Positions 4,495-37,039 of a stretch of DNA of 64,000 bases are shown here, piece after piece. The DNA comes from Escherichia coli (GTDB lineage: Bacteria > Pseudomonadota > Gammaproteobacteria > Enterobacterales > Enterobacteriaceae). The stretch lies in the NCBI RefSeq assembly GCF_001677475.2, contig NZ_CP015229.1. One strand, written 5' to 3'. Made by a program: the position numbers and the translations under genes. Within the stretch, counting starts at the first letter, position 1. Each line of letters opens with the position of its first letter. The notes beneath the pieces are model-generated. The model ran no database searches and was not told the origin of the DNA. It saw only the letters and a program-made list of their open reading frames with translations.

Positions 4495-5046
4495 ATGAAT
4501 CGCACATCCCTGATTAAATTAATTCATGTCGCCCGTCGTGATCTACAACTCGACGATGACACTTACCGCGCCTTTCTGGTGCAGTGCACAGGCAAGACCA
4601 GCTGCCGCGAGCTGTCCGTTGCACAACTGGAACGTGTGCTCGATGCCATGAAAGAGTGCGGTTTTAAAAAGCAGAAAAAACATCCCCGCCGTCGCTTTAA
4701 GGGGCATGTCACACCGCGCGAGAAGATTTATAAAATCTGGCAGCAGATGTTTCAGGATGGCTTTATCGCTGATGGCAGCGATGTCGCGCTGGACAAATAC
4801 GTTGCACGCCTGACGGCCAGACGTAATGGCGGTCAGGGGGTTTCCACGCTGGCCTGGTGTCACGGGGAATCGTTGCAGGTTGTGCTCGAAACGCTCAAGC
4901 AGTGGCACATGCGCTGCATCCGGGAAGCCTTTGCCCGACATGGTGTGCCGTTACCTGCAAGCCCATCCGGGCGGGAACTACGCGGATATGATGCACTGAC
5001 CAGTGCATATGCCCGCGCACGAAACAGCGGGAGAATTGCTGTATGA
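4495..5046 (+). CDS. gemA: GemA-like protein (Mu gp16 family)
   Basis: 183 aa; GGAGG RBS; position before mor. Confidence 0.75.
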   Translation: MNRTSLIKLIHVARRDLQLDDDTYRAFLVQCTGKTSCRELSVAQLERVLDAMKECGFKKQKKHPRRRFKGHVTPREKIYKIWQQMFQDGFIADGSDVALDKYVARLTARRNGGQGVSTLAWCHGESLQVVLETLKQWHMRCIREAFARHGVPLPASPSGRELRGYDALTSAYARARNSGRIAV

Positions 5047-5492
5047 AACAGATGAAAGAGCAGGATTTATTCGAAGACCTTCGGGACGACAGCGTTCTGG
5101 AATATCTTCATGATTACCAGGAAAACACCGCTTATCCGGCGTTACTTTCTGAACTGAACGCACTGCTGCGTAAAGAGCTGGCCCGGATTGGCGCAGACCC
5201 TGCTCATTCCCTTGAGCTGGTTGTGGCGATTTGTCGCCATATCGGCGGGATGCAGGTTTATGTTCCGAGGGGGAATATTCTGGAGAATCTTGTCCGGGAT
5301 ATGCGTATCTGGCGTGATTTTAACGGTCATAATATTCCTGAACTGGTTCAGCGTTACGGGGTGACGTATAAAACCGTCTACAAGGCCATCAAACGGATGC
5401 GACGTCTGGAGCGCAATAAATACCAGCCGGATTTGTTTTACCCCTCCCCGAACCTGCCTCACCCCGTTCGTCGTCCACCACGACGCCCTTAA
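5043..5492 (+). CDS. mor: Mor-like middle operon regulator
   Basis: 149 aa; ATG overlaps gemA stop; ...GGMQVYVPRG...YGVTYKTVYKAIKRMRRL resembles Mu Mor with longer C-terminus. Confidence 0.8.
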   Translation: MKQMKEQDLFEDLRDDSVLEYLHDYQENTAYPALLSELNALLRKELARIGADPAHSLELVVAICRHIGGMQVYVPRGNILENLVRDMRIWRDFNGHNIPELVQRYGVTYKTVYKAIKRMRRLERNKYQPDLFYPSPNLPHPVRRPPRRP

Positions 5493-5498
5493 TCAATG

Positions 5499-5522
5499 AA
5501 GCCGGTAAATCCGGCTTTTTTT
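5499..5522 (+). terminator. rho-independent terminator-like hairpin (AAGCCGG-TAAAT-CCGGCTT plus T7)
   Basis: 7-bp stem, 5-nt loop, run of 7 T; 7 nt after mor stop; identical copy at 13234-13257. Confidence 0.55.
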
Positions 5523-5577
5523 ATGCCTCCGGCACCATGAAGCAGACCACGTTTAAATCTGCTTCACAGGTGCTTTT

Positions 5578-6174
5578 ATGGAAAATCAAAAATTCTCCCC
5601 GGCCTTTGAACATGCGCTGAATTTCATTCTGCGTCCCGATATCGAAGGCGTCTATGCCAATGACCCCACTGACCGTGGCGGTGAAACCAAATACGGCATT
5701 TCTGACCGCCGCGACGGTGTGACTGACGGCAAAACCGATGTCAACGGCGACGGCAAACCGGATACCCGCATCAGGGATTTAACCCGCGAACAGGTTGCTC
5801 AGATTTACTGGCGCGATTACTGGCTGCCTGCCGGATGTGACCAGTGGCCTGATGGCGTGGCGATGTTTGTGTTCGATGCGGCGGTTCAGCATGGCGTTAA
5901 AAAAGCTATCAGGATTTTGCAGGAAGCCGCGGATGTGGATGCTGACGGCATCATCGGCCCCCGTACCCGTAAGGCCGTGAGCCTGTCCACCCCGGACTGG
6001 CTGCTGGCCCGCTGCATTGTCCGTCGTTCCCGCTTTTATGCCGACATCATCAAGTCCAAACCCGCCCAGGGCAAATACCTGAACGGCTGGTTTAACCGCA
6101 TGGAAAAGCTGACCGACGCCTGTCTGGAAATCATCGATACCCCTCCAGGCATCATGTCCGCCACGCGGGGGTGA
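5578..6174 (+). CDS. endolysin, GH108-like N-terminal domain plus peptidoglycan-binding domain
   Basis: 198 aa; motif EGVYANDPTDRGGETKYGIS typical of GH108 muramidases. Confidence 0.8.
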   Translation: MENQKFSPAFEHALNFILRPDIEGVYANDPTDRGGETKYGISDRRDGVTDGKTDVNGDGKPDTRIRDLTREQVAQIYWRDYWLPAGCDQWPDGVAMFVFDAAVQHGVKKAIRILQEAADVDADGIIGPRTRKAVSLSTPDWLLARCIVRRSRFYADIIKSKPAQGKYLNGWFNRMEKLTDACLEIIDTPPGIMSATRG

Positions 6175-6175
6175 T

Positions 6176-6427
6176 ATGGGCAAAGGCTGGGATGCCTCTC
6201 TGAAAGCCGGGCGGCGCGACCGCCTGCGTCAGGAGGTTCTGCACCGCATGGCCGGAGGTCCGCCCCCGAAACCGCTGGACTATACCGGCCATGACGGCAC
6301 ACACGCCAGCTACTACATGCGTGGCTGGAACTCCGTGGATACACGGGACATTTTCTGGCAGTGCCAGAAGTACAGGGAAAAATTCAATGTGGAAAAAGGT
6401 TATGAACAAAATTTTAAAACTGTGTGA
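6176..6427 (+). CDS. hypothetical protein in lysis region
   Basis: 83 aa; ATG 2 nt after endolysin stop. Confidence 0.45.
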   Translation: MGKGWDASLKAGRRDRLRQEVLHRMAGGPPPKPLDYTGHDGTHASYYMRGWNSVDTRDIFWQCQKYREKFNVEKGYEQNFKTV

Positions 6428-6812
6428 CTGGCTGATTTGTTCCCGACTGATGAGAACCCCATGGCCGCTGGCCGGACTGACGCTCTGTATGTTCATCATC
6501 AGCATGTTATGTGGCTGGCGATCGTTCGTGTTGATGTTGTTGTCCTTTGCCGGGGTGGTGTTGTTTTCATACAGCGCAAGCCTCGGGAATGTGCCATTTC
6601 GCCTGCTGCCTGAGGTCCGTTACCGGGCTTTTGGTCGCCACATCATCGTGTGGTCATGGGTGGTCTGGGCGCTGGGATATTTCTGCTGCGTCTTCAGCAC
6701 GCTGATGATGATGTCACCGGCACACCCGGTGTTCTGGCTGTGTGGTGGCGGTTGCGGCGCTCTGCTCTGTCTTCAGCGTTATCTGTATGGAGGTTTCCCG
6801 TGGATCCGTTAA
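6387..6812 (+). CDS. multi-pass membrane protein, possible holin-like
   Basis: 141 aa, several hydrophobic segments, Cys-rich; next to endolysin. Confidence 0.45.
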   Translation: MWKKVMNKILKLCDWLICSRLMRTPWPLAGLTLCMFIISMLCGWRSFVLMLLSFAGVVLFSYSASLGNVPFRLLPEVRYRAFGRHIIVWSWVVWALGYFCCVFSTLMMMSPAHPVFWLCGGGCGALLCLQRYLYGGFPWIR

Positions 6813-7408
6813 CCCTTTCAGGCATCGCCTCCGTTCTGCTGAAAGCCGGGCCGGGGCTGATTCGTTCCGTCGGGCGCTGGTTTGGTGGCGGTACATCTGC
6901 CGCCGCTGACTCGGTGGCCGGTATGGTGGAAAGCGTCCGGGAAAGCCTGCCGGTGGCTGAACAGCAGCGCGTTCTGGAACAGAAGATGGCGATGTTACCA
7001 CCGGAACAACAGATACAACTGGAAACCCTGAAAATTCAGCTGCAACAACTGGAGGTGGAGCGGCAGAAGCTGGTGCTGGCTGACCAGCAGGCCGCACACC
7101 ACGAACAGCAGGAAACCATCCGCAATGGTGACAACGCCACGGACAGCTATGTGCGCCAGACGCGCCCGCTGCTGGCCCGCCTTTCCTGTTACAGCGGTCT
7201 GGCCTATGTGCTGTTGCTCTCCTGCGGCCAGATTGCCGGAGCCGTTGCCGGTGCCAGAGGTATCACGCTGCATATGCCAACACCGGACTGGGATATCACG
7301 CTGATGTTGCTTACCCCTGCGCTGGGCTATCTCGGCGTGCGAACCCTTGACGGCTTTGCCCGTTACAGCAAATCAAGCCGTCACAAAATGTCTGCGGGGC
7401 TGAAATGA
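6800..7408 (+). CDS. coiled-coil membrane protein (lysis or morphogenesis associated)
   Basis: GTG 6800 after GGAGG RBS; coiled coil QQIQLETLKIQLQQLEVERQKL and C-terminal hydrophobic segments; start uncertain. Confidence 0.45.
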   Translation: MDPLTLSGIASVLLKAGPGLIRSVGRWFGGGTSAAADSVAGMVESVRESLPVAEQQRVLEQKMAMLPPEQQIQLETLKIQLQQLEVERQKLVLADQQAAHHEQQETIRNGDNATDSYVRQTRPLLARLSCYSGLAYVLLLSCGQIAGAVAGARGITLHMPTPDWDITLMLLTPALGYLGVRTLDGFARYSKSSRHKMSAGLK

Positions 7409-7632
7409 CCGATGAAATCGACCGCATCAGTGAAGTGGTTCTGAACGAGCGTCAGTGCGTCGTTAAAGCCTGGCAGACGCGGACAAAAGAAGCGCCCCAC
7501 AGTCGGGGCTTCTGCAATGACTGCGGGAACGTTATTCCGGCACAGCGCCTTGCGGCGCTGCCGGATGTGGTGACCTGTATTGACTGCCAGCAGATGCGTG
7601 AGCGCAGGAGGAAGACATGTCCTGGGAAGTGA
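7405..7632 (+). CDS. TraR/DksA-family C4 zinc-finger protein
   Basis: 75 aa; CNDCGN...(17 aa)...CIDCQ. Confidence 0.75.
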   Translation: MTDEIDRISEVVLNERQCVVKAWQTRTKEAPHSRGFCNDCGNVIPAQRLAALPDVVTCIDCQQMRERRRKTCPGK

Positions 7633-7922
7633 TCCGGGCCAACTGGCCCATTTTATGGGCGCTGTTGATGACAGCGATAAATTTGCTTCAGCTGATTCTG
7701 GCAAAGACTTACGTCAAACGCGAAGAGTTTGATTCGCTGCGTTCCCGTGTGTCGGTGATGGAAGGTCTGGTGAATCAGCTCCCCGACCGCAATGAATTTC
7801 ACCGCCTGCAACTGGATATCAGCAACCTGCGGGGCGAAATCCGGGAACTGGGGCCATCCATACGCCAGGTTTCCCGCATCAGTGATTTGTTATTAGAGAA
7901 CGAGTTAAAGGTAAAAAATTAA
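7617..7922 (+). CDS. membrane-anchored coiled-coil protein (DUF2730-like)
   Basis: 101 aa; GGAGG RBS; N-terminal TM then heptad-rich region. Confidence 0.55.
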   Translation: MSWEVIRANWPILWALLMTAINLLQLILAKTYVKREEFDSLRSRVSVMEGLVNQLPDRNEFHRLQLDISNLRGEIRELGPSIRQVSRISDLLLENELKVKN

Positions 7923-8215
7923 TGGCGATGAAAGAGATCCTCACTGAAGACCGTCGTCTGGTGTTGCTGCGTTCCCTGCTGGACTGTGGCGACAGCGCGA
8001 ATGAATCCGTGTTGCAGACCTGCCTTCAGGCTTATGGTCATAAGGTATCCCGTGATGTGGTGCGCACCCAGCTTGCATGGCTTCGCGAGCAGGGGTTGGT
8101 TCGTCTGTCTGATGTGGGCGGCTGTTACGTGGCTGAAATCACCGGCAGCGGCGAGGATGTGGCAAACGGCCTGTCCAGCGTTCCGGGCGTTAAAAAACCC
8201 CGTGCGAGGGGCTGA
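7922..8215 (+). CDS. hypothetical protein, possible winged-helix regulator
   Basis: 97 aa; ATG at previous stop. Confidence 0.5.
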   Translation: MAMKEILTEDRRLVLLRSLLDCGDSANESVLQTCLQAYGHKVSRDVVRTQLAWLREQGLVRLSDVGGCYVAEITGSGEDVANGLSSVPGVKKPRARG

Positions 8216-8217
8216 GC

Positions 8218-8517
8218 ATGGCCCGAAAACTGAAGCCGTTAAGTCGCGGAGAACGGGCCGTCGTGCGGCAACTGGCGTACTGCCTTGTGCTGGCAGATAT
8301 TGAGCAAAACGCCATTGTCCGTGCATACGAACAACAGACCGGAAAGCCCTGGAGCCCGGATGCACCGGACAGCCCCATGAAACGCTTTCTGCGGTCATCA
8401 CCGGCATGTGCGCGGCTGTGGAAGCTGCTGGGTAAGGATATCCGGTCCGTTCGCGAAGAAATATACGCCGGTCTGAAAACACCGGGAACTGAAGACGGGG
8501 GCCGTCGTGAACCGTAA
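8218..8517 (+). CDS. hypothetical protein
   Basis: 99 aa; GAGGGG RBS. Confidence 0.5.
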   Translation: MARKLKPLSRGERAVVRQLAYCLVLADIEQNAIVRAYEQQTGKPWSPDAPDSPMKRFLRSSPACARLWKLLGKDIRSVREEIYAGLKTPGTEDGGRREP

Positions 8518-8654
8518 AAAGAATCCGATAAGTAAAGCGTCCCGTGATGAACTCCGCCGTCTGGCGCACAACCTGACATGGCGGGAAATCCAGAGCGGCG
8601 CGCTGAAATCTGCATACGAAAGTTTACAGCGTAGTGAGCAACAGGAGGGCAAAC

Positions 8655-9236
8655 ATGGAAAATGAACAACGCCCCACCCGTGGCCGTCTTTCCAAAGTGG
8701 ATTTACTCCCGGACAGCATCCGGGAGCAGTTGCATCAGATGCTGCGGGAAAAGCGGCACACGCAGGAAGAAATCCGCGAAGCCATCAACGCCCTGATTGA
8801 CGAACACAACCTGCCGGAAGAGATGCAGTTAAGCCGGACGGGTTTAAACCGTTATGCCAGCCGCATGGAAAAAGTCGGGGCCAAAATCCGCGCCTCCCGC
8901 GAAATGGCCGAAGTCTGGGCGGCAAAGCTGGGTTCCGCGCCAACATCAGACGTCGGCAGGCTGCTGATGGAGTTTGTAAAAACGCTGGCCTTTGAAACGT
9001 CCATGTCGATGGCAGAAGACGACAAACCTGTAGCACCAAAGGCGCTGGGGCAACTGGCGCTGGTTGCCCAGCGTCTGGAAGCGGCAGCCATGACCAGCCA
9101 TAAACGCGAGAAAGCGATCCGCGATGCGTTTGCACAGGAGATGGCTGAGAAAACCGAAGAGCTGGTCAGAACGGGTGGTCTGTCAGGCGGTGCGGCTGAC
9201 ACCATCAAACGAGACATTCTGGGGATTAGCGCATGA
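8655..9236 (+). CDS. terminase small subunit-like protein (Mu gp27 family)
   Basis: 193 aa from ATG 8655 with AGGAGG RBS; directly upstream of large terminase. Confidence 0.7.
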   Translation: MENEQRPTRGRLSKVDLLPDSIREQLHQMLREKRHTQEEIREAINALIDEHNLPEEMQLSRTGLNRYASRMEKVGAKIRASREMAEVWAAKLGSAPTSDVGRLLMEFVKTLAFETSMSMAEDDKPVAPKALGQLALVAQRLEAAAMTSHKREKAIRDAFAQEMAEKTEELVRTGGLSGGAADTIKRDILGISA

Positions 9237-10768
9237 CACAGATGAACACGTTCAGTGAATCCGATGTTCTGCTGCCGTATCAGAAACGCTGGGTGGCGGA
9301 TGATTCAAAACTGAAAATCGCCGAGAAATCACGCCGTACCGGGTTAACCTGGGCGGAAGCGGCAGATGCAGCACTGACCGCATCACTGAAGAAGGAAAAC
9401 GGCGGGCGCGATCACTTTTATATCGGTTCGAATAAGGAGATGGCCCGCGAATTTATCGACGCCGTAGCGATGTGGGCGAAAGCGTTTAATGCGGCAGCGG
9501 AAGAAATCCGCGAGGAAGTGATCACCGACGAAGACATGGACATTCTGACGTTCGTCGTGTACTTCGCCAGCGGTTTTAAGGTCAAGGCGCTGTCCAGCAA
9601 TCCGGGCAACATTCGCGGGATGCAGGGGAATGTCACCATCGACGAAGCGGCGTTTCATGAAAAACTGGATGAGGTACTCAAGGCGGTCACACCACTGACC
9701 ACGTGGGGCGGTAAGGTTCGCCTTATCTCCACCCATGACGGCGTGGACAACCCGTTTAACCAGCTGATTCAGGAGAGCCGCGCAGGCAAAAAAGATTACC
9801 GTATTCACACCATCACGCTGGATGACGCCTGCAGTGACGGGCTGTACCGGCGTATCTGTCAGGTACGCGGCATGGAGTGGTCACCGGAGGCCGAGGCGGA
9901 ATGGAAAGAAGGCCTGCTGCGAAATACCGCCACCCGCGAAGACGCCCTGGAGGAATATTACTGCGTCCCGAAAAACGGCGGCGGCACGTATATCCCCCGC
10001 TCAATGCGTGAACGTGCAGCCCGTGGCACCGGAAAAGTGTTGCGCTTTACCGGCACACCGGAATTTAACGCACTGACGGAAAGCCAGCGCCGGGCAGATA
10101 TCCGGGAATGGCTGGAAACGGTGGTGCGCCCTGAACTGGAAAAACTCCCACAGAACCTGCGCCACTGTCTGGGGGAAGACTTTGCGCGTTCGGGTGACCT
10201 GACTGTGCTGGCCCCGGTGACGGTGAACGACGACACCACCCGCGAGGTGCCGTTCCTGGTTGAGCTTGCCAATGTGCCGTTTAAACAGCAGGAGCAGGTA
10301 CTGTTCTGGCTTTGCGATCGTCTGCCCCGTCGTGACGGCATCAAAATGGATGCGCGGGGGAATGGTCAGTATCTGGCAGAACAGGCGGCGGAGCGGTACG
10401 GCGACGAGGTGGAACAGGTGATGCTGTCCGTGGCGTTTTACCGTGAAAACATGCCCCGTTTCCGTGCGGCGTTTGAAGATGATGAGCTGATCCTTCCGAA
10501 GCATGAAGACGTGATCAATGACCTCGGGGCCATTCAGTTACTGCGTGGCGTTCCCGGCATTGATGATTCACGAACCAGAGGCAGCGACGGTCACAAACGT
10601 CACGGCGACGCCGCTGTGGCCATTTTCCTGGGCTTCCTTGCCAGTAAAGATGACTGCCACCGTTACGAACTGCACCGTCTGAACCGCCCGGCGAAACCGG
10701 AAGAACGCAACGCGCGCCGCCAGCTGAAGCTGACGCGCGGCCTGAAAAATGAGGGAGGTTTACTGTGA
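9233..10768 (+). CDS. terminase large subunit
   Basis: 511 aa; overlapping ATGA start; Walker-like FYIGSNKE and nuclease-like motifs. Confidence 0.85.
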   Translation: MTQMNTFSESDVLLPYQKRWVADDSKLKIAEKSRRTGLTWAEAADAALTASLKKENGGRDHFYIGSNKEMAREFIDAVAMWAKAFNAAAEEIREEVITDEDMDILTFVVYFASGFKVKALSSNPGNIRGMQGNVTIDEAAFHEKLDEVLKAVTPLTTWGGKVRLISTHDGVDNPFNQLIQESRAGKKDYRIHTITLDDACSDGLYRRICQVRGMEWSPEAEAEWKEGLLRNTATREDALEEYYCVPKNGGGTYIPRSMRERAARGTGKVLRFTGTPEFNALTESQRRADIREWLETVVRPELEKLPQNLRHCLGEDFARSGDLTVLAPVTVNDDTTREVPFLVELANVPFKQQEQVLFWLCDRLPRRDGIKMDARGNGQYLAEQAAERYGDEVEQVMLSVAFYRENMPRFRAAFEDDELILPKHEDVINDLGAIQLLRGVPGIDDSRTRGSDGHKRHGDAAVAIFLGFLASKDDCHRYELHRLNRPAKPEERNARRQLKLTRGLKNEGGLL

Positions 10769-13210: not shown

Positions 13211-13231
13211 GGGGTATTTCCCCGTTTTCAG

Positions 13232-13257
13232 TGAAGCCGGTAAATCCGGCTTTTTTT
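13232..13257 (+). terminator. second identical copy of the 26-bp hairpin plus T7 element
   Basis: TGAAGCCGGTAAATCCGGCTTTTTTT identical to 5497-5522; 50 nt upstream of I start. Confidence 0.55.
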
Positions 13258-13306
13258 CTGCCTTCCGCATACTGACCGTCGGTAACCCCAGACGACGGAG
13301 ACTGAC

Positions 13307-23858: not shown

Positions 23859-24385
23859 ACGCCATTGCCCGCCGTCTGCGACTGATGGTTGACCGTGCCA
23901 TTGTCCGCATGGTGTCTGACAGTCTGGAGCGGCAGAACCTGCAAATCCAGACGCTGGCAGATGCCACCGACGACGACGTGGAACGCTTCCAGAACTACGG
24001 TTTTACATCCGTGCCGCCGGAAGGTTCTGAAGCCATAGTGCTGGCCGTTAGCGGGCGGCGTGACGGGCTGGTTGCCATCGCGGTGGAGGACAAGCGATGT
24101 CGCCCGAAAGGGCTGTCCCCCGGCGACGTCCGGCTGTATCACCAGGACGGCAAATCACATATCACGTTAAGGAAAGGCGGAATTATTGAAATCACAGGGG
24201 AACAATTAAACGTTTCAGGGAAAACGGTAAATCTCACCGCCGACGAATTACTGGCTATAAATGCAGGAAATATGAAATTCGTCGGTCCCTGTGAGTTTAC
24301 TGAAGATGTCAGAATCAACGGCAAATCTTTCAGCGAACACATTCATAAGGACGGCGACAATGAGAATACATCACCGCCCGTATGA
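23849..24385 (+). CDS. baseplate spike protein (gpV-like)
   Basis: 178 aa. Confidence 0.65.
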   Translation: MGLNAIARRLRLMVDRAIVRMVSDSLERQNLQIQTLADATDDDVERFQNYGFTSVPPEGSEAIVLAVSGRRDGLVAIAVEDKRCRPKGLSPGDVRLYHQDGKSHITLRKGGIIEITGEQLNVSGKTVNLTADELLAINAGNMKFVGPCEFTEDVRINGKSFSEHIHKDGDNENTSPPV

Positions 24386-30839: not shown

Positions 30840-30863
30840 GTCATCATTTTGTATAGTTTATAA

Positions 30864-30887
30864 CGATCGATACAATCGTATCGATCG
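30864..30887. promoter_or_regulatory. palindrome with two GATC sites upstream of com-mom (candidate Dam-sensitive operator)
   Basis: CGATCGATA-CAATCG-TATCGATCG, perfect 9-bp inverted repeat, GATC at 30865 and 30883. Confidence 0.5.
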
Positions 30888-30961
30888 TCAGTTTGCATCA
30901 TCTGTGATTAAATACCCTGGCCCTCAGGGCTATCGTATCTGGTTAATACACAGGTGGGATC

Positions 30962-31147
30962 ATGGATGCTGTTCGTTGTAAAAACTGCAATAAATTGCTG
31001 TTTAAAGGAAGTTTTAAGCATATAGAAATCAAATGCCCTCGTTGTAAACGTTACATTGTCATGTCGAGTGCCCGGGAGCATCCCACGGAGCTGTATTGTG
31101 GGAAAAGAGAAGAAATCACGCATCCTTACAAAACCCTGCGTTATTGA
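30962..31147 (+). CDS. com: Com zinc-finger translational activator of mom
   Basis: 61 aa; [33 protein letters not shown]...THPYKTLRY closely resembles Mu Com. Confidence 0.85.
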
Positions 31148-31793
31148 GTATGAAGGCCGTATTGTCGGCTATGGTTCAAGGGAACTGCGCGTTGAAACCA
31201 TATCCTGCTGGCTGGCCCGCACAATCATTCAGACAAAGCACTATTCCCGCCGTTTTGTGAATAACTCCTGGTTGCATCTGGGGGTATTCAGCGGACGTGA
31301 TCTGGTTGGCGTTCTCCAGTGGGGATACGCCCTTAATCCCAACTCAGGGCGTCGGGTCGTGCTGGAAACGGATAACCGGGGCTATATGGAACTGAACCGC
31401 ATGTGGTTACACGACGACATGCCCCGCAACTCTGAATCACGGGCTATCAGCTACGCACTGAAAACCATCAGGTTACTGTATCCATCAGTGGAGTGGGTTC
31501 AGTCCTTTGCAGACGAACGCTGCGGACGTGCAGGTGTTGTGTATCAGGCATCTAATTTTGATTTTATTGGTAGCCATGAAAGCACGTTCTACGAGCTGGA
31601 CGGCGAGTGGTATCACGAGATAACGATGAACGCGATTAAGCGTGGAGGACAACGAGGCGAGTATTTGCGGGCTAATAAGGAGCGGGCGGTGGTACACAAA
31701 TTTAATCAGTATCGCTACATCAGATTCCTGAACAAGCGCGCAAAAAAGCGACTAAATACTAAGCTATTCAGGATTCAGCCATACCCGAAGTGA
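31098..31793 (+). CDS. mom: Mom DNA adenine modification protein
   Basis: No in-frame ATG near 5' end; GTG 31098 (GGAG 9 nt upstream) gives 231 aa; overlaps com by 50 nt. Confidence 0.8.
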
Positions 31794-31838: not shown

Positions 31839-32244
<406 letters not shown>

Positions 32245-32356
32245 TTGTCATTTGTTACCGGTCAGTCTACACATTTCAGATGCTGCGTTAAAAAACCCAA
32301 GTACTTCAAGTAGCACATCGTCATCAACACCCAGCCCCAAGATACGGTGATAAAAT

Positions 32357-33390
32357 TCAAGCCTTAAGAGGCTTTGTGTATGTTCGTGTAATCCATCCAG
32401 TAATAAACTCGTCCCCTGATTTAACCTGCACGAAAAGCCATTGGCGATCTTTTTTATCTAAAACAGCCACTATAGTATTTTTGCCAATGCATTCAATCAC
32501 CTCACTATTTATAGAAGGACTGACGTGTAATCTTACGTTCTCACCAGTTATAAAACGAAAACCATTGAGATCTTCCCAACTAATTTCTTTGTTTTCTTTA
32601 ATTAATTGTTGTTTTGATATTGGTTTATCCTCAAACAGAGATATAAAATATGATTCTGCCTTGTGTATTCCCAGCAAGGTTTTCTCTTTTCCGTAATCAA
32701 TAAAAGCACCAAACACAACTTGAGAAAATATAACCATTAGTAACCATTGCAGTGGATAAGGAAGCTCTTTAAATGAATCAACAAACTTTGAGCTAGGTTT
32801 ATTTAATCCTTTATTTTGAACATTACTTTTGGTGTGTGATGTTTCAGTAGCACCTTCAGCATAAGCCTGCGCAATAGATGAAATCCCCTGCTCTATTATT
32901 TGATGTAATGAAGCATTTCTTGTTCTAGCATAGTGATCTAGTACTTTCTTTATGTCTTGGCTTACATCTGTTTTATAACTTGCACTTTGTTGTAATTCTT
33001 TAAGTATCGCTTGCATGTTATTTAAACCAGCTTGCTTATTAAGCACCTCAAGCTGTTTTCGTAATGGCATAGCTATTTCGGCCTGTTTCCTTAGCATTTG
33101 AATATATCTATTTGCGTCATGAGGGAAAAGAGCCTGAGTCTGTTTCTGTAAAATCGCGATATGTTCACGATACTTGCTGCCTATTCCAGCCAAGTTCGGC
33201 ATACTAGCCAATTGTTTTCGAAGAGAGTTACTAATTACAGCTTGTCTATTCAATCTTGTCATATTTTGAAAAGAATGTTTTTCTATTCCTAATTGTTTTT
33301 GCAAGATCGCTACGTGATCTTTGTATGATGGAATGAGCACTGACTGTTTATACAGTAACTTCAACTCATTAGAATTAGTAATTTTTGTCA
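32357..33390 (-). CDS. membrane protein with internal repeats and SH3-like C-terminal domain (sim-region)
   Basis: AT-rich; repeats HVAILQKQ / EHIAILQKQ, one TM, C-terminal beta-rich domain; start uncertain. Confidence 0.45.
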
Positions 33391-33465
33391 TATTATTCCA
33401 TTTATATAATAGAATATTACGCAACCAATGTTTTATTGATTGCGTTAATCTTTAACACAGAAAGA

Positions 33466-33942
33466 TCATTTGCCTCGTTTAATACATCCATCCATTTTGG
33501 CTTGTTGATACAACTTACTTAGCCCAGAAAGAGGGAATGTAGCAATTTTTTCATTATCAACATAAGCATCAATCATATTAGCATTTGAATCTGCTGCATC
33601 TTGCCAAAAGGCATACCACCAAGAATCTCCAACCATTGATCCAAGATTGCTAAAAGGATATTGCTCACCATCTATAGTTAATACTATTTTATTCTTGTCA
33701 GCATTATACTCTTTTTTATTATTCGACGAACTTAGCAACAAGCCTAAACTACCTGCACTATCTGGTGAACCATACATGAATCCCATATCACATAAAAAAC
33801 TTATCTTATCACCATTATGATTATGGATTGTATATTCTCTCCCCCCTCTCTCTTCAATTACATTCCATTGTAGAGGATCAATTTTTGCAAATGTTCCTGC
33901 TGAAACTAACGATACAAATAATAAAAACCATCTCATATTCAT
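33466..33942 (-). CDS. secreted protein with signal peptide (sim-region)
   Basis: 158 aa; N-terminus MNMRWFLLFVSLVSAGTFA; AT-rich. Confidence 0.55.
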   Translation of the reverse strand: MNMRWFLLFVSLVSAGTFAKIDPLQWNVIEERGGREYTIHNHNGDKISFLCDMGFMYGSPDSAGSLGLLLSSSNNKKEYNADKNKIVLTIDGEQYPFSNLGSMVGDSWWYAFWQDAADSNANMIDAYVDNEKIATFPLSGLSKLYQQAKMDGCIKRGK

Positions 33943-33964
33943 TCTTTTCGCTTCTTATCTGTAA

Positions 33965-34315
33965 TTATTCTGCAATATCATTTGCCCATTGCACGGCAGC
34001 AAAATGAGTACCCAAACCACTCAGGAAAGCAATTACCCCCAAAACAATACTTGCTGCTGTTGATTCAAACAAAGTACCAATACTATAGCCAATAGCTCCC
34101 CATACTAAGCTAAATACAATCATCAATGGTATTGCCAGAAATTTTATTCTTAAACTAAAAATCAGTCCAAGAAAAGAACCGCCAAAGGCCCACCATGATT
34201 TAGACATTAAACCTATCAGTATTGACAGAATTCCTATTTCAATAAAGAGAATATTAGATTGCTCTTCATTGAATTTCGCATTTGTTACACCTTTACGAAC
34301 ATGTTCAGATGACAT
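33965..34315 (-). CDS. small multi-pass membrane protein (sim-region)
   Basis: 116 aa; AGGAG RBS; 3 hydrophobic segments. Confidence 0.55.
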   Translation of the reverse strand: MSSEHVRKGVTNAKFNEEQSNILFIEIGILSILIGLMSKSWWAFGGSFLGLIFSLRIKFLAIPLMIVFSLVWGAIGYSIGTLFESTAASIVLGVIAFLSGLGTHFAAVQWANDIAE

Positions 34316-34453
34316 GATTAACTATCTCCTGCCACAGATAAAACGCCTTAAAATAACATTTTGTAGCATAAAGTTTCACCATGCAATGGTCAAAATCTTT
34401 GACCCATATCAATTAAACTCATACATTTTAGTTACCAGGGAAATAATTTACAT

Positions 34454-34470
34454 GGTTACAAGTTGCTCTA
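34454..34470. promoter_or_regulatory. C1 repressor operator-like 17-mer upstream of immI
   Basis: GTTGCTCTAATTATTTT versus P1 consensus ATTGCTCTAATAAATTT. Confidence 0.45.
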
Positions 34471-34654
34471 ATTATTTTATTTTTTTAGCTTCATATGCTA
34501 CATTAACTTGCTTGCGTGCTAATGCATTTTCGGTTTATCCTAAACAGGCATCTTAGTAAAATGGATGCCGGGATTGGAACCCCGGATAATGCAAAAGGCG
34601 ACACAGACGCCAAAAGCGTCTTTTTTTGTGTCATGCCATCGCACAGCCATACGT

Positions 34655-34745
34655 AGCACATAGCTCCGAGATCAATGGTAGTGCTGGCTGGGCTGCCGAA
34701 AGGCAGGCCGGTTCCCTTTTGCGCCGGTAGTTCCAACCCAGTCAG
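34655..34745 (+). ncRNA. c4: c4-like antisense regulatory RNA region of immI (boundaries approximate)
   Basis: Segments complementary to GATTGGAACC / CCATTGAG elements present upstream (34571) and at the icd RBS (34754-34770); position between operator and icd. Confidence 0.4.
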
Positions 34746-34812
34746 TGCTACCGCCATTGAGATTGGAACCTCACGCGGTAGCTCCTTAAATTAGCAAAAG
34801 GAGGCTGCCATT

Positions 34813-35034
34813 GTGGCTACTATCCCTACCCCTACTCATCCTGAATTTATCTGGCGCTTTTACTCCTGCCAAAAACACCACTATCACTTCGTTATCGCAG
34901 CAACAGAAGACGAAGCACGCTCTCAATTGCCTGATGGCCCCTGCATTTTTACTGCCCGTTTTTCAACTAACTCGCGCAATTCACTTAGTTACTGGAACCT
35001 CCCCTTCTCTGCCGACGTTCAGGGGGGTTTATGA
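34813..35034 (+). CDS. icd: Icd-like cell-division interference protein
   Basis: 73 aa; GTG start after AAAGGAGG; stop overlaps ant start. Confidence 0.6.
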   Translation: MATIPTPTHPEFIWRFYSCQKHHYHFVIAATEDEARSQLPDGPCIFTARFSTNSRNSLSYWNLPFSADVQGGL

Positions 35035-36074
35035 AAAAACCTCTCGTCACCCGGAATGAAATAGCCGAAGCGATCGCCCTGCATACTGCCTGTATGCCGA
35101 CACGGGAGATCCCCGGCGCAATTGCCAACTATTTCATGATAACCAAGCGTTTTTATACCCGGATAGATAAGGCTGTGATCAACAGGCTACTGATAGCCGA
35201 GATCAGGGATTATTTGATTGAACAAGGACGTCTACGTTACGCAACAGTGGCAGCAGAAATGAGAAAGGAGGCACATAGAATGACCGGTAATAATTTGAAT
35301 GTTGAAAAACCAGCACCTGTTGCTTCAGCTACGCCAGCACCAGCCGTGAATGTCATCCCCAACACCGGAGACACAATCGACAGCCAAACATTGTTGAAGA
35401 TGGTCAATGAGGCACGCAAGTTATGTGGAGAACCATTGGTTAGAAACAATAAATTCATCGAAAAAATACTCGACGAATTAGAAGGTGAGGACGGTTACAC
35501 AAAAAGTGCAACCGTGCCGCCAGGTGGCGGTACGCCTATGGTTGTCATAACCATGACCTACAAACAAGCCCTGCGAGTTGCCGCGCGCGAGTCAAAAGCG
35601 GTCCGCCGTTCGCTGATCGACAAACTGGAAGAATTGCAGCAGGCAAACTCCCCTGCCCCATCGATCCCCCAAACATTACCAGAAGCTCTACGCCTGGCTG
35701 CCGAGTTGGCAGAACAGAAAATGCAGTTGGAACAACAGCTGGTGGCCGCAGCCCCTAAAGTCGATTTTGCCGACCGGGTATCAGTGGCCAATGGAATCCT
35801 GATCGGGAACTTTGCAAAGGTCGTTGGACTTAAGCAAAACGCCCTTTTCTCATGGTTGCGCCAGAGCGGCATTCTCATGGCTTTTGGTGAGCGCAAAAAC
35901 GTACCGCGCCAGCAATACATTAATGCCGGGTATTTCACGGTGAAAGAAGTGGTGCTGGATGATGAAAATGGCTACCAGATACGGCTGACGCCCCAATTAA
36001 CGGGTAAAGGCCAGCAGTGGTTAACTCGCAAGCTACTTGATGCTGGTTTGTTAAAACCAGTAGCAATAGGTTAA
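35031..36074 (+). CDS. ant: antirepressor Ant (KilAC-type C-terminal domain)
   Basis: 347 aa; C-terminal block AAPKVDFADRVSVANGILIGNFAKVVGLKQN; in-frame internal Met for a shorter form. Confidence 0.75.
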   Translation: MKKPLVTRNEIAEAIALHTACMPTREIPGAIANYFMITKRFYTRIDKAVINRLLIAEIRDYLIEQGRLRYATVAAEMRKEAHRMTGNNLNVEKPAPVASATPAPAVNVIPNTGDTIDSQTLLKMVNEARKLCGEPLVRNNKFIEKILDELEGEDGYTKSATVPPGGGTPMVVITMTYKQALRVAARESKAVRRSLIDKLEELQQANSPAPSIPQTLPEALRLAAELAEQKMQLEQQLVAAAPKVDFADRVSVANGILIGNFAKVVGLKQNALFSWLRQSGILMAFGERKNVPRQQYINAGYFTVKEVVLDDENGYQIRLTPQLTGKGQQWLTRKLLDAGLLKPVAIG

Positions 36075-36085
36075 TAAAAGAAAAA

Positions 36086-36112
36086 AACCTGCCAGCAAAC
36101 TGGCAGGTTTCT
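36086..36112 (+). terminator. terminator after ant
   Basis: AACCTGCCAG-CAAA-CTGGCAGGTT then T-rich. Confidence 0.5.
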
Positions 36113-36152
36113 GAGCAGATCGTCCAACCCGATCTGGATCGAGTTAGAAAAA

Positions 36153-36169
36153 TTTGCTCTAATAAATTT
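36153..36169. promoter_or_regulatory. C1 operator-like 17-mer upstream of kilA-repL
   Basis: TTTGCTCTAATAAATTT, 16/17 to P1 consensus. Confidence 0.55.
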
Positions 36170-36238
36170 CGTTTTATAAGTGCAAATAATCACCATTTCG
36201 AGCTGGTGATTGAAGGTTGATGCAAATTTGGAGAAAAA

Positions 36239-37039
36239 ATGCAACAAACATTCAATGCGGATATGAATATATCAAACCTTCATCAAAATGTCGATCCTTC
36301 AACCACTCTGCCCGTTATTTGTGGTGTTGAAATTACGACCGACCGCGCTGGCCGTTACAACCTTAATGCTCTACACAGAGCGAGCGGACTCGGTGCCCAT
36401 AAAGCGCCAGCTCAATGGCTAAGAACGCTGTCAGCCAAACAGCTCATCGAAGAGCTTGAAAAAGAAACTATGCAGAATTGCATAGTTTCGTTCGAAGGCC
36501 GTGGCGGCGGCACGTTTGCCCATGAATTGCTCGCTGTGGAGTACGCAGGCTGGATTTCTCCCGCGTTTCGGCTGAAGGTAAACCAGACATTTATCGACTA
36601 TCGAGCCGGAAGATTACAACCTGCTATTCCGCAGAGTCTCCCTGAAGCTCTCCGTTTGGCTGCCGACCTGGCAGAGCAAAAGCAACGGCTGGAGCAAAAA
36701 ATGCTTATGGATGCACCTAAAGTCGAATTCGCCGAACGCGTTGCTACCGCCAGCGGGGTTCTAATCGGCAACTATGCCAAAGTGCTCGGCCTGGGCCAAA
36801 ACTATCTCTTCACCTGGTTGCGTGATAACGGAATTCTGATCGCAACCGGTGAACGCAGGAACGTCCCCAAACAAGAATACATATCCCATGGGTATTTCAC
36901 CCTTAAAGAAACCGTGATCGATACAAGCAATGGAAGCAGGATTTCTTTCACGACTCGTATAACCGGCAAAGGTCAGCAGTGGCTGATGAAGCGATTGCTT
37001 GATGCTGGTGTGCTGGTACCTGTCGCGGCAACGCGCTAA
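36239..37039 (+). CDS. kilA: KilA (KilA-N plus KilAC domains)
   Basis: 266 aa; C-terminal half paralogous to Ant C-terminus. Confidence 0.7.
   Translation: MQQTFNADMNISNLHQNVDPSTTLPVICGVEITTDRAGRYNLNALHRASGLGAHKAPAQWLRTLSAKQLIEELEKETMQNCIVSFEGRGGGTFAHELLAVEYAGWISPAFRLKVNQTFIDYRAGRLQPAIPQSLPEALRLAADLAEQKQRLEQKMLMDAPKVEFAERVATASGVLIGNYAKVLGLGQNYLFTWLRDNGILIATGERRNVPKQEYISHGYFTLKETVIDTSNGSRISFTTRITGKGQQWLMKRLLDAGVLVPVAATR

Follow-up and report, generated by a model that had tools for sequence, protein, structure and literature searches.

We analysed the late control of a Mu-like prophage in a window of 64,000 nucleotides of Escherichia coli DNA (contig NZ_CP015229.1, assembly GCF_001677475.2). 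The prophage occupies bases 1 to ~31,900, and its left end is removed by the window edge. It has one activator gene of the Mor/C family, mor, which ends the early operon just before the endolysin gene. The single Mor protein most likely activates the late genes directly, in a two-step cascade, through modules that resemble Pm, the Mor-dependent middle promoter of phage Mu. The early operon would supply the protein. Mor would bind a Pm-type site (A-R-K-G-A-A-G-C-C-G-G-T-W-A-A-T) centred ~43.5 bp upstream of the transcription starts, and its targets would be at least two late operons, one for lysis, terminase and portal (start at ~5546), the other for the head protease and downstream genes (~13281). 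A third Mor-activated promoter might lie inside a baseplate gene, near 24268. Since an intrinsic terminator overlaps each putative Mor site, a single 30-nt element would halt the upstream transcript and restart transcription only in the presence of Mor. Such a cascade would run from early to late in a widespread enterobacterial Mu-like lineage, instead of passing through the three steps of Mu.

A single Mor/C-family activator

The activator gene is located as follows:

5043..5492, + strand: mor, 149 aa, the only Mor/C-family activator gene of the prophage (PF08765)

Its product matched the Pfam Mor family PF08765 (E 3.6e-30, 104.6 bits, cut-off 24.9) and phrog_532, a late transcriptional activator family (E 5e-41). 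Judged by its sequence, it is an orthologue of Mor and not of Mu C, being 63% identical to Mu Mor vs 32% to Mu C. The recognition helix reads TVYKAIKRMRR in the window Mor and TVYKAIRRMRR in Mu Mor, and the helix VTYKTVYKAI(K/R)RMR was near-invariant across the related Mor proteins and Mu Mor. Marks of the family are an invariant linker pattern, G-G-x-x-x-Y-x-P-x-G, and a helix-turn-helix at the C-terminus (PMC2582627). The window Mor carries both, as IGGMQVYVPRG and VTYKTVYKAIKRMRR, and residues G65, G66, Y70, P72, and G74 were invariant in the alignment of the related proteins (A4).

Further family members were sought by six-frame phmmer and hmmsearch runs with Mu Mor, Mu C, and the window Mor as queries. 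Mu and a Yersinia Muvirus, used as positive controls, each yielded two genes. The 64 kb window contained one Mor/C open reading frame (ORF) in any frame, the next best match having E > 2. The complete prophage of E. coli STEC388 and the complete Klebsiella phage Kp4866-3 also had one gene each, and these searches revealed no second Mor/C gene in the window, in the complete relatives, or in 58 related loci. A C homologue elsewhere in the prophage, which the earlier note had named as the result that would overturn its proposal, was thus not present in the six frames of the window. Two matches in one related locus (L065) turned out to be the halves of one frameshifted gene. The Yersinia vB_YpM phages were rejected as C-less relatives, because they are ordinary Muvirus members with C.

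The C-terminal motif of the window Mor is QPDLF, compared with QPSLL in Mu Mor (5418-5492). QPDLF is the C-terminal clamp-binding consensus reported for MuC (PMC12867686). It is followed by a 17-residue Pro/Arg-rich tail found only in the E. coli subgroup, and the Mor proteins of other relatives end in QLDLF, QPELF, QMPLF, or QYSLD.

Terminator and putative Mor-site modules before the lysis and head operons

The Mor site of Mu Pm is a 16-bp dyad at -51 to -36 (PMC4390567, PMC4287176). We anchored the Mu numbering on primer JM6, as published, together with the mutations -57G and -54A, which place +1 at Mu base 9224; the primer name "Mu Pm nt9163" is consistent with this numbering. The Mu site is then AGTAAAGCCGGTTAAT, which overlaps the left arm and the loop of the Mu early-operon terminator. 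Two similar modules were found in the window:

5495..5510, + strand: predicted Mor-type site AATGAAGCCGGTAAAT of P_lys, with 13/16 matches to Mu AGTAAAGCCGGTTAAT, corresponding to -51..-36 of Pm

5498..5523, + strand: intrinsic-terminator hairpin with an 8-bp stem, a 5-nt loop, and T7, which ends the early operon and overlaps the Mor site

5533..5538, + strand: -10-like hexamer CACCAT of P_lys, at the same offset as TATCCT in Mu Pm

13221..13273, + strand: P_I module before the head protease gene (13307), with the site AGTGAAGCCGGTAAAT at 13230-13245 (14/16 matches to the Mu site), a hairpin at 13233-13253 (T-run to 13258; 8-bp stem, 5-nt loop, T7), and the hexamer CATACT at 13268-13273

By analogy with Pm, transcription is predicted to start at ~5546 for P_lys and near 13281 for P_I. 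Each module has the 16-bp dyad and a hexamer 22-23 bp downstream, with no -35 element, which is the sequence pattern of a Pm-type promoter. Both hairpins have the GC-rich stem-loop and U run of an intrinsic terminator, and the one at 5498-5518, followed by T7, folded with -12.6 kcal/mol (z -3.5). The two modules form a 49-nt repeat, 13221-13269 being 86% identical to 5486-5534. Exact copies of AGCCGGTAAATCCGGCT occurred only twice in the 64 kb, each in the gap before a late operon. The P_I copy lies between an F-like gene and the head protease gene I, the map position of the Mu late promoter P_I.

These results bear on the earlier note, according to which mor is followed only by a hairpin and a GH108-type endolysin, with no C in between. 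This was confirmed by the coordinates, Pfam, and the terminator scan. Its suggestion that late control may work differently from that of Mu also gained support, albeit in a mundane way: most likely, Mor itself acts directly through the sites before lys and I.

Conservation in related loci

Searching viral contigs with the window Mor yielded 58 related loci, whose Mor proteins are 61-100% identical to it. In all loci reaching each gene, the order was GemA-Mor-GH108-gp18-(membrane protein)-202 aa-TraR-DUF2730-gp26-(99 aa)-gp27-TerL-portal-F-I. The 99-aa gene is missing from three loci, and one locus (L038) is deleted between gp18 and the portal gene. Klebsiella phage Kp4866-3 also keeps the order, and the same block was found in ~44 complete E. 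coli genomes at 90-96% identity.

The element lies 80-110 bp before the endolysin gene and 77-99 bp before I in every related locus. It stays next to lys even where 350-550 bp of extra DNA separates mor from lys. Many relatives have an extra small gene between mor and the module (L003, 7958-8290; inserts of 350-550 bp in L020-L064). Its position makes this gene the last of the early operon, and the version in the Klebsiella phage codes for a membrane protein of 110 aa.

The bases A..GAA..CGGTWAATCC were invariant in 31 representative sequences including Mu; they make up the Mor dyad plus two bases, loop included. Invariance of CGGTWAATCC, the 3' half of the left arm together with the loop, is not what a plain terminator would be expected to need. 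The stem is maintained (92% of cells paired; two pairs with changes on both sides), yet C15 is fixed even where its pairing partner is lost, and the element therefore appears to be under two constraints, as a terminator and as a protein site. The P_lys hexamer occurred in nine variants. At the exact offset, 42/44 unique sequences had A2 and T6, and a tolerance of 1 nt raised this to 44/44. For P_I, both bases were found in 37/37 unique sequences. The background per offset was 3.5-5% (3.5% for P_lys).

The same data can be read as those of a terminator only, with the late genes reached through read-through or antitermination of the early transcript and no dedicated late promoters. Both copies fold as canonical terminators whose stem is retained through compensatory changes. 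No sigma-70 consensus promoter was found on the + strand between 4900 and 9300, and consensus matches on the + strand of the late region were fewer than expected, a lack that also counts in favour of activation by Mor. However, conservation is higher in the loop and in the 5' flank beyond the stem than in the right stem arm, which varies; the A2/T6 hexamer is found at the Mu Pm spacing in all relatives; the homologous Mu element is an experimentally mapped Mor-dependent promoter; and no antiterminator candidate was identified. On balance, a terminator acting alone is unlikely. On the + strand, the only strong terminators of the late region are those of the two modules and one that follows mom.

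Another reading is that the prophage derives from Mu and became defective when a deletion removed C and the adjacent genes. Indeed, gp20, C, and the SAR (signal-arrest-release) lysin and spanin of Mu are missing, and some E. coli copies, such as STEC388, contain pseudogenes. This is nevertheless hardly credible: the order is conserved with intact ORFs from 100% down to 61% Mor identity, across the 58 contigs and ~44 E. coli genomes, and the arrangement recurs in the phage record Kp4866-3 and in inducible Pasteurellaceae phages.

A possible third promoter and the remaining late units

Scanning the window with a position weight matrix (PWM) of the site revealed a third candidate:

24217..24261, + strand: candidate third Mor-type promoter in a baseplate-V-like gene, ~165 bp before a gp46-like gene

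The site, AGGGAAAACGGTAAAT at 24217-24232, is the third-best PWM match in the window (17.7 bits) and the best match of its locus in 42/44 related loci. A -10-like hexamer, TATAAA, follows at the right distance. The codons within the site are frozen (Gly as GGG in 38/39, Asn as AAT in 38/38), compared with a codon entropy of 0.7-1.9 bits in other conserved Gly columns. From its sequence, the site may be a third Mor-type promoter with a start near 24268. A further PWM match, at 8229-8246 inside the 99-aa gene, was rejected, since it has no -10 hexamer at the required offset.

No site of the Mu C type (TTAT-N5-6-ATAA) was found before lys, I, the tail genes, or com, and the consensus matches that do occur in the window have, by their positions, no bearing on the late operons. 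Upstream of com, the region 30840-30961 keeps the GATC cluster of Mu Pmom, which in Mu is the OxyR/Dam region. The Mu C site ATTATGCCCCAATAAC is absent upstream of com-mom here. A short palindrome, CCCTGGCCCTCAGGG, lies in this region.

Several points weigh against direct late activation by Mor. The hexamers are weak, with 3-4/6 matches to TATAAT. The repeated element also makes a good intrinsic terminator, and since compensatory changes preserve its stem, some of the conservation is independent of Mor. The third site is within coding sequence where the protein motif is conserved, and its conservation could be for the protein. Neither the PWM nor inspection by eye revealed a Mor-type site before com-mom, which leaves at least one late unit unexplained. 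The related sequences are non-independent samples. Gene content, the single Mor/C gene, the match to the mapped Mu site, and the conservation of site, spacing, and -10 hexamer are observations, while Mor binding, the start sites, and the Mor dependence of the late operons are what we infer from them.

Genes between mor and the small terminase

The gap between mor and the endolysin gene is 85 bp, and the gp18-gp19-gp20-C block, which in Mu occupies an interval of 1.3 kb, is absent from it. For the block that follows, the earlier note had counted seven small genes before the small terminase. The small-gene block stands, but the count does not: the Prokaryotic Genome Annotation Pipeline (PGAP) gives eight ORFs from endolysin to gp27 in close E. 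coli relatives. The genes are:

5578..6174, + strand: soluble endolysin, GH108 + PG_binding_3, 198 aa (PF05838 E 3.2e-23, PF09374 E 3.2e-17)

6176..6427, + strand: gp18 homologue, 83 aa (69% identity to Mu gp18, E 6e-38)

6402..6812, + strand: 136-aa protein with three predicted membrane segments, at the Mu gp19 position (phrog_12596)

6800..7408, + strand: 202-aa coiled-coil protein with a C-terminal membrane segment, holin candidate (phrog_1544 E 1e-58)

7405..7632, + strand: TraR/DksA-type C4 zinc-finger protein, 75 aa (PF01258 E 6.5e-11)

7617..7922, + strand: DUF2730 protein, 101 aa, with an N-terminal membrane anchor (PF10805 E 1.6e-29)

7922..8215, + strand: gp26 orthologue, 97 aa (60% identity to Mu gp26, E 2e-42)

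8218..8517, + strand: 99-aa protein, phrog_8988, predicted three-helix hairpin (AlphaFold pLDDT 85.8)

8507..8665, + strand: 52-aa ORF, truncated paralogue of the 99-aa protein, corresponding to its N-terminal part (phrog_8988 E 7e-4, residues 1-39)

8655..9236, + strand: small terminase of the Mu gp27 type, which closes the block (PF11985 E 1.5e-54)

Could one of these small proteins, namely the TraR/DksA zinc finger, the 97-aa protein, or the 99-aa protein, have replaced C as the late activator, as the earlier note had proposed? All C-less relatives have the TraR-like gene, and Mu lacks it. The 97-aa protein has faint helix-turn-helix matches, and its homologue in a Vibrio phage carries the annotation of an ArsR-family regulator. 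Yet all three candidates are encoded downstream of the first predicted late promoter and are therefore unable to start late transcription. TraR-family proteins act on RNA polymerase without binding DNA. The homologues of gp18, gp25, and gp26 coexist with C in Mu; the 97-aa protein is Mu gp26 and consequently cannot replace C. No Ogr/Delta-type match was found. The proposal is accordingly very unlikely to hold.

The earlier note had also listed two proteins of about 100 aa as possible DNA-binders. For the 97-aa protein this stands at most as a possibility: it belongs to the VpaChn25_0724 family (NF050184, 122 bits), its helix-turn-helix matches are weak (E ~0.02), and it is possibly a winged helix. 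The 99-aa protein showed no sign of DNA binding by profile comparison, PDB sequence search, structure prediction, or fold search, and the same four approaches ruled it out as a cryptic C. For the 99-aa family, the profile check against Mor/C that the note had called for gave an hhalign probability of 0.25%, that is, no relation between the families. The predicted fold had no PDB match at E below 1, Mor (1RR7) included.

Both Pfam domains of the endolysin scored above cut-off; it also matched the endolysin family phrog_315 and has no predicted transmembrane (TM) segment. Its gene precedes the gp18 and gp19 homologues, which is a departure from the Mu order. The 136-aa protein had weak BLASTP similarity to Mu gp19 (E 0.011). 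The 202-aa protein has one clear TM segment by a simple hydropathy scan and is kept in all relatives; its score against PF11351 (GTA_holin_3TM) was 20.4 bits, below the cut-off of 24.8. Together with the TraR-like protein, it stands in place of gp20-C-Plys-SAR lysin-spanin-gp24 of Mu. The TraR-like protein has four Cys and scored 42.5 bits with PF01258 (cut-off 24.9) and 58.6 bits with TIGR02419 (cut-off 59.7). Its gene has no Mu counterpart and was found in all relatives whose sequence extends that far. The DUF2730 protein is 29% identical to Mu gp25, a member of the same family. Mu gp25 is a releasin (PMC9239132), and DUF2730 proteins pair with many endolysin types in Mu-like phages, cytoplasmic ones included (PMC9239132, Chamblee et al. 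2022).

The 284 positions of the phrog_2121 profile cover the gp18-like protein (3-85), the 202-aa protein (91-273), and the 136-aa protein (198-259). To judge from the profile, other phages apparently have the three as a single fused protein, so that Mu gp18 may represent the soluble domain of a protein of the membrane or of lysis. Neither homology nor a lipobox ORF search revealed an Rz/Rz1 or unimolecular spanin in 5400-9300, despite the soluble endolysin and the holin-like protein encoded there. The 52-aa ORF overlaps the end of the 99-aa gene, is PGAP-annotated in STEC388, and represents a partial tandem duplication of the 39 N-terminal residues. In some relatives gp27 directly follows a 95-aa form.

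Inverted repeats over the predicted start sites

Both modules are followed by an inverted repeat:

5539..5565, + strand: inverted repeat GAAGCAGA...TCTGCTTC over the predicted P_lys start, candidate fold-back hairpin in read-through RNA only

13276-13298: inverted repeat at P_I (counterpart at 2575-2612 in the related locus L002)

Every relative has such a repeat between the hexamer and the start codon at both promoters, its 5' arm beginning in the last 1-2 hexamer bases. The geometry is the same throughout, while the stems comprise more than 10 unrelated sequences. An inverted repeat is present at Mu Pm too; there the start codon of gp18 falls within the 3' arm. We set the hairpin boundaries by a direct pairing check; folding with upstream sequence gave other helices and was uninformative. 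The computed costs of opening the ribosome-binding site (RBS) in native and read-through transcripts, with the native starts assumed to be as in Mu, were as follows (kcal/mol):

P_lys, median: native 6.7; read-through 12.3; upstream 40 nt shuffled 7.8

P_I, median: native 4.4; read-through 12.9; upstream 40 nt shuffled 6.8

Mu Pm: native 5.1; read-through 13.0

The P_lys of the window followed this pattern (6.5 kcal/mol for the native transcript vs 13.7 for read-through). The window's own P_I was without the effect (8.5 vs 7.9 kcal/mol).

It is conceivable, although we regard it as doubtful, that the Mor-dependent promoters of this lineage and Mu Pm are double insulators. The first layer would be formed by the terminator, which is at the same time the Mor site, and the second by a hairpin with its 5' arm between the -10 hexamer and the start. 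RNA started at the promoter would lack the 5' arm and be translatable, while read-through RNA would fold over the RBS region of the first gene, the endolysin gene in the case of P_lys. The hairpin would resemble the fold-back inhibition that shields the IS10 transposase from outside transcription. If true, this would be a means of silencing an endolysin gene placed directly after the early operon.

The prophage and its setting

Further landmarks of the prophage are:

319-1278: B-type ATPase gene

end at 5046: GemA-like gene

30962-31793: com-mom pair

The DNA to the right of the prophage (31920-36700 onward) matches E. coli plasmids of 91-100 kb at 98-99.7%, and 1177 of the 1282 places matching this flank are plasmid-borne. 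The matching plasmids encode KilAC antirepressors and carry Icd-like and ash genes, which marks them as P1-like phage-plasmids. A phage-plasmid therefore seems to host the Mu-like prophage. The relative in STEC388 is chromosomal and lies within a DUF945 gene. In this closest annotated E. coli copy (L001), the endolysin gene has an internal stop and gam is frameshifted (6499-7323, 9579-10175). Some chromosomal copies, to go by STEC388, are decaying; the endolysin of the window is intact.

Relation to known systems and significance

The proposed control resembles the Pm/Mor system of Mu. Besides the orthologous activator (63% identity) with its near-identical recognition helix, the two share a site of 16 bp that overlaps the early-operon terminator and comprises a GC-rich core, AGCCGG, and the half-site TWAAT; both have no -35, a weak -10 at equal spacing, and an A/T-rich stretch at -55/-54. 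In contrast to Mu, where Pm drives only gp18-gp19-gp20-C, a putative Pm-type promoter here precedes, at least twice, endolysin and head genes. With the C system of Mu, the prophage has in common the protein family, the proposed role on lysis, head, and tail operons, and the equivalent map positions of the promoters, before lys and I. It differs in having neither a C orthologue nor TTAT-N5-6-ATAA sites. The three-step cascade of the genus Muvirus involves two paralogues and a middle operon between mor and lys; the prophage has one paralogue.

The departure from Mu that the earlier note had pointed out is real, but it is not unusual. In a phage collection, 72 records had a Mor/C homologue, and two genes were found only in Muvirus records (Mu, D108, SfMu, Mu_3F6, PhiR68_1, and the Yersinia vB_YpM phages). 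The one-gene records included Vibrio, Burkholderia, Pseudomonas, Shewanella, Klebsiella, and other Escherichia Mu-like phages. One Mor/C gene is thus the rule among Mu-like phages, and the difference is ordinary. Nor is a GH108 lys after mor without C new, having been published for Pasteurellaceae phages (PMC4553209). In 3927AP2, phiMhaMu2 (Mannheimia), and SuMu (Haemophilus), a GH108 + PG_binding_3 lys immediately follows mor, and middle genes such as C were noted as lacking (PMC4553209, Niu et al. 2015). These phages differ from the window prophage in their hosts, in low sequence similarity, and in having no com-mom, which the prophage has. Kp4866-3 and related IMG/VR prophages share the order from GemA to I and the two promoter modules. 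Kp4866-3 differs by ~71% DNA identity, by the extra small membrane-protein gene between mor and the module, and by a P_I copy without a clean T-run.

For annotation, these findings mean that a C-less Mu-like prophage should be taken as neither defective nor exotic, with its Mor gene as the presumed late activator. The predicted modules, two or three in number, are concrete fragments for tests of Mor specificity. The comparison further suggests that the "middle" genes gp18 and gp19 of Mu belong to the lysis/late block in its relatives, and that the three-step cascade of Mu is a genus-specific elaboration.

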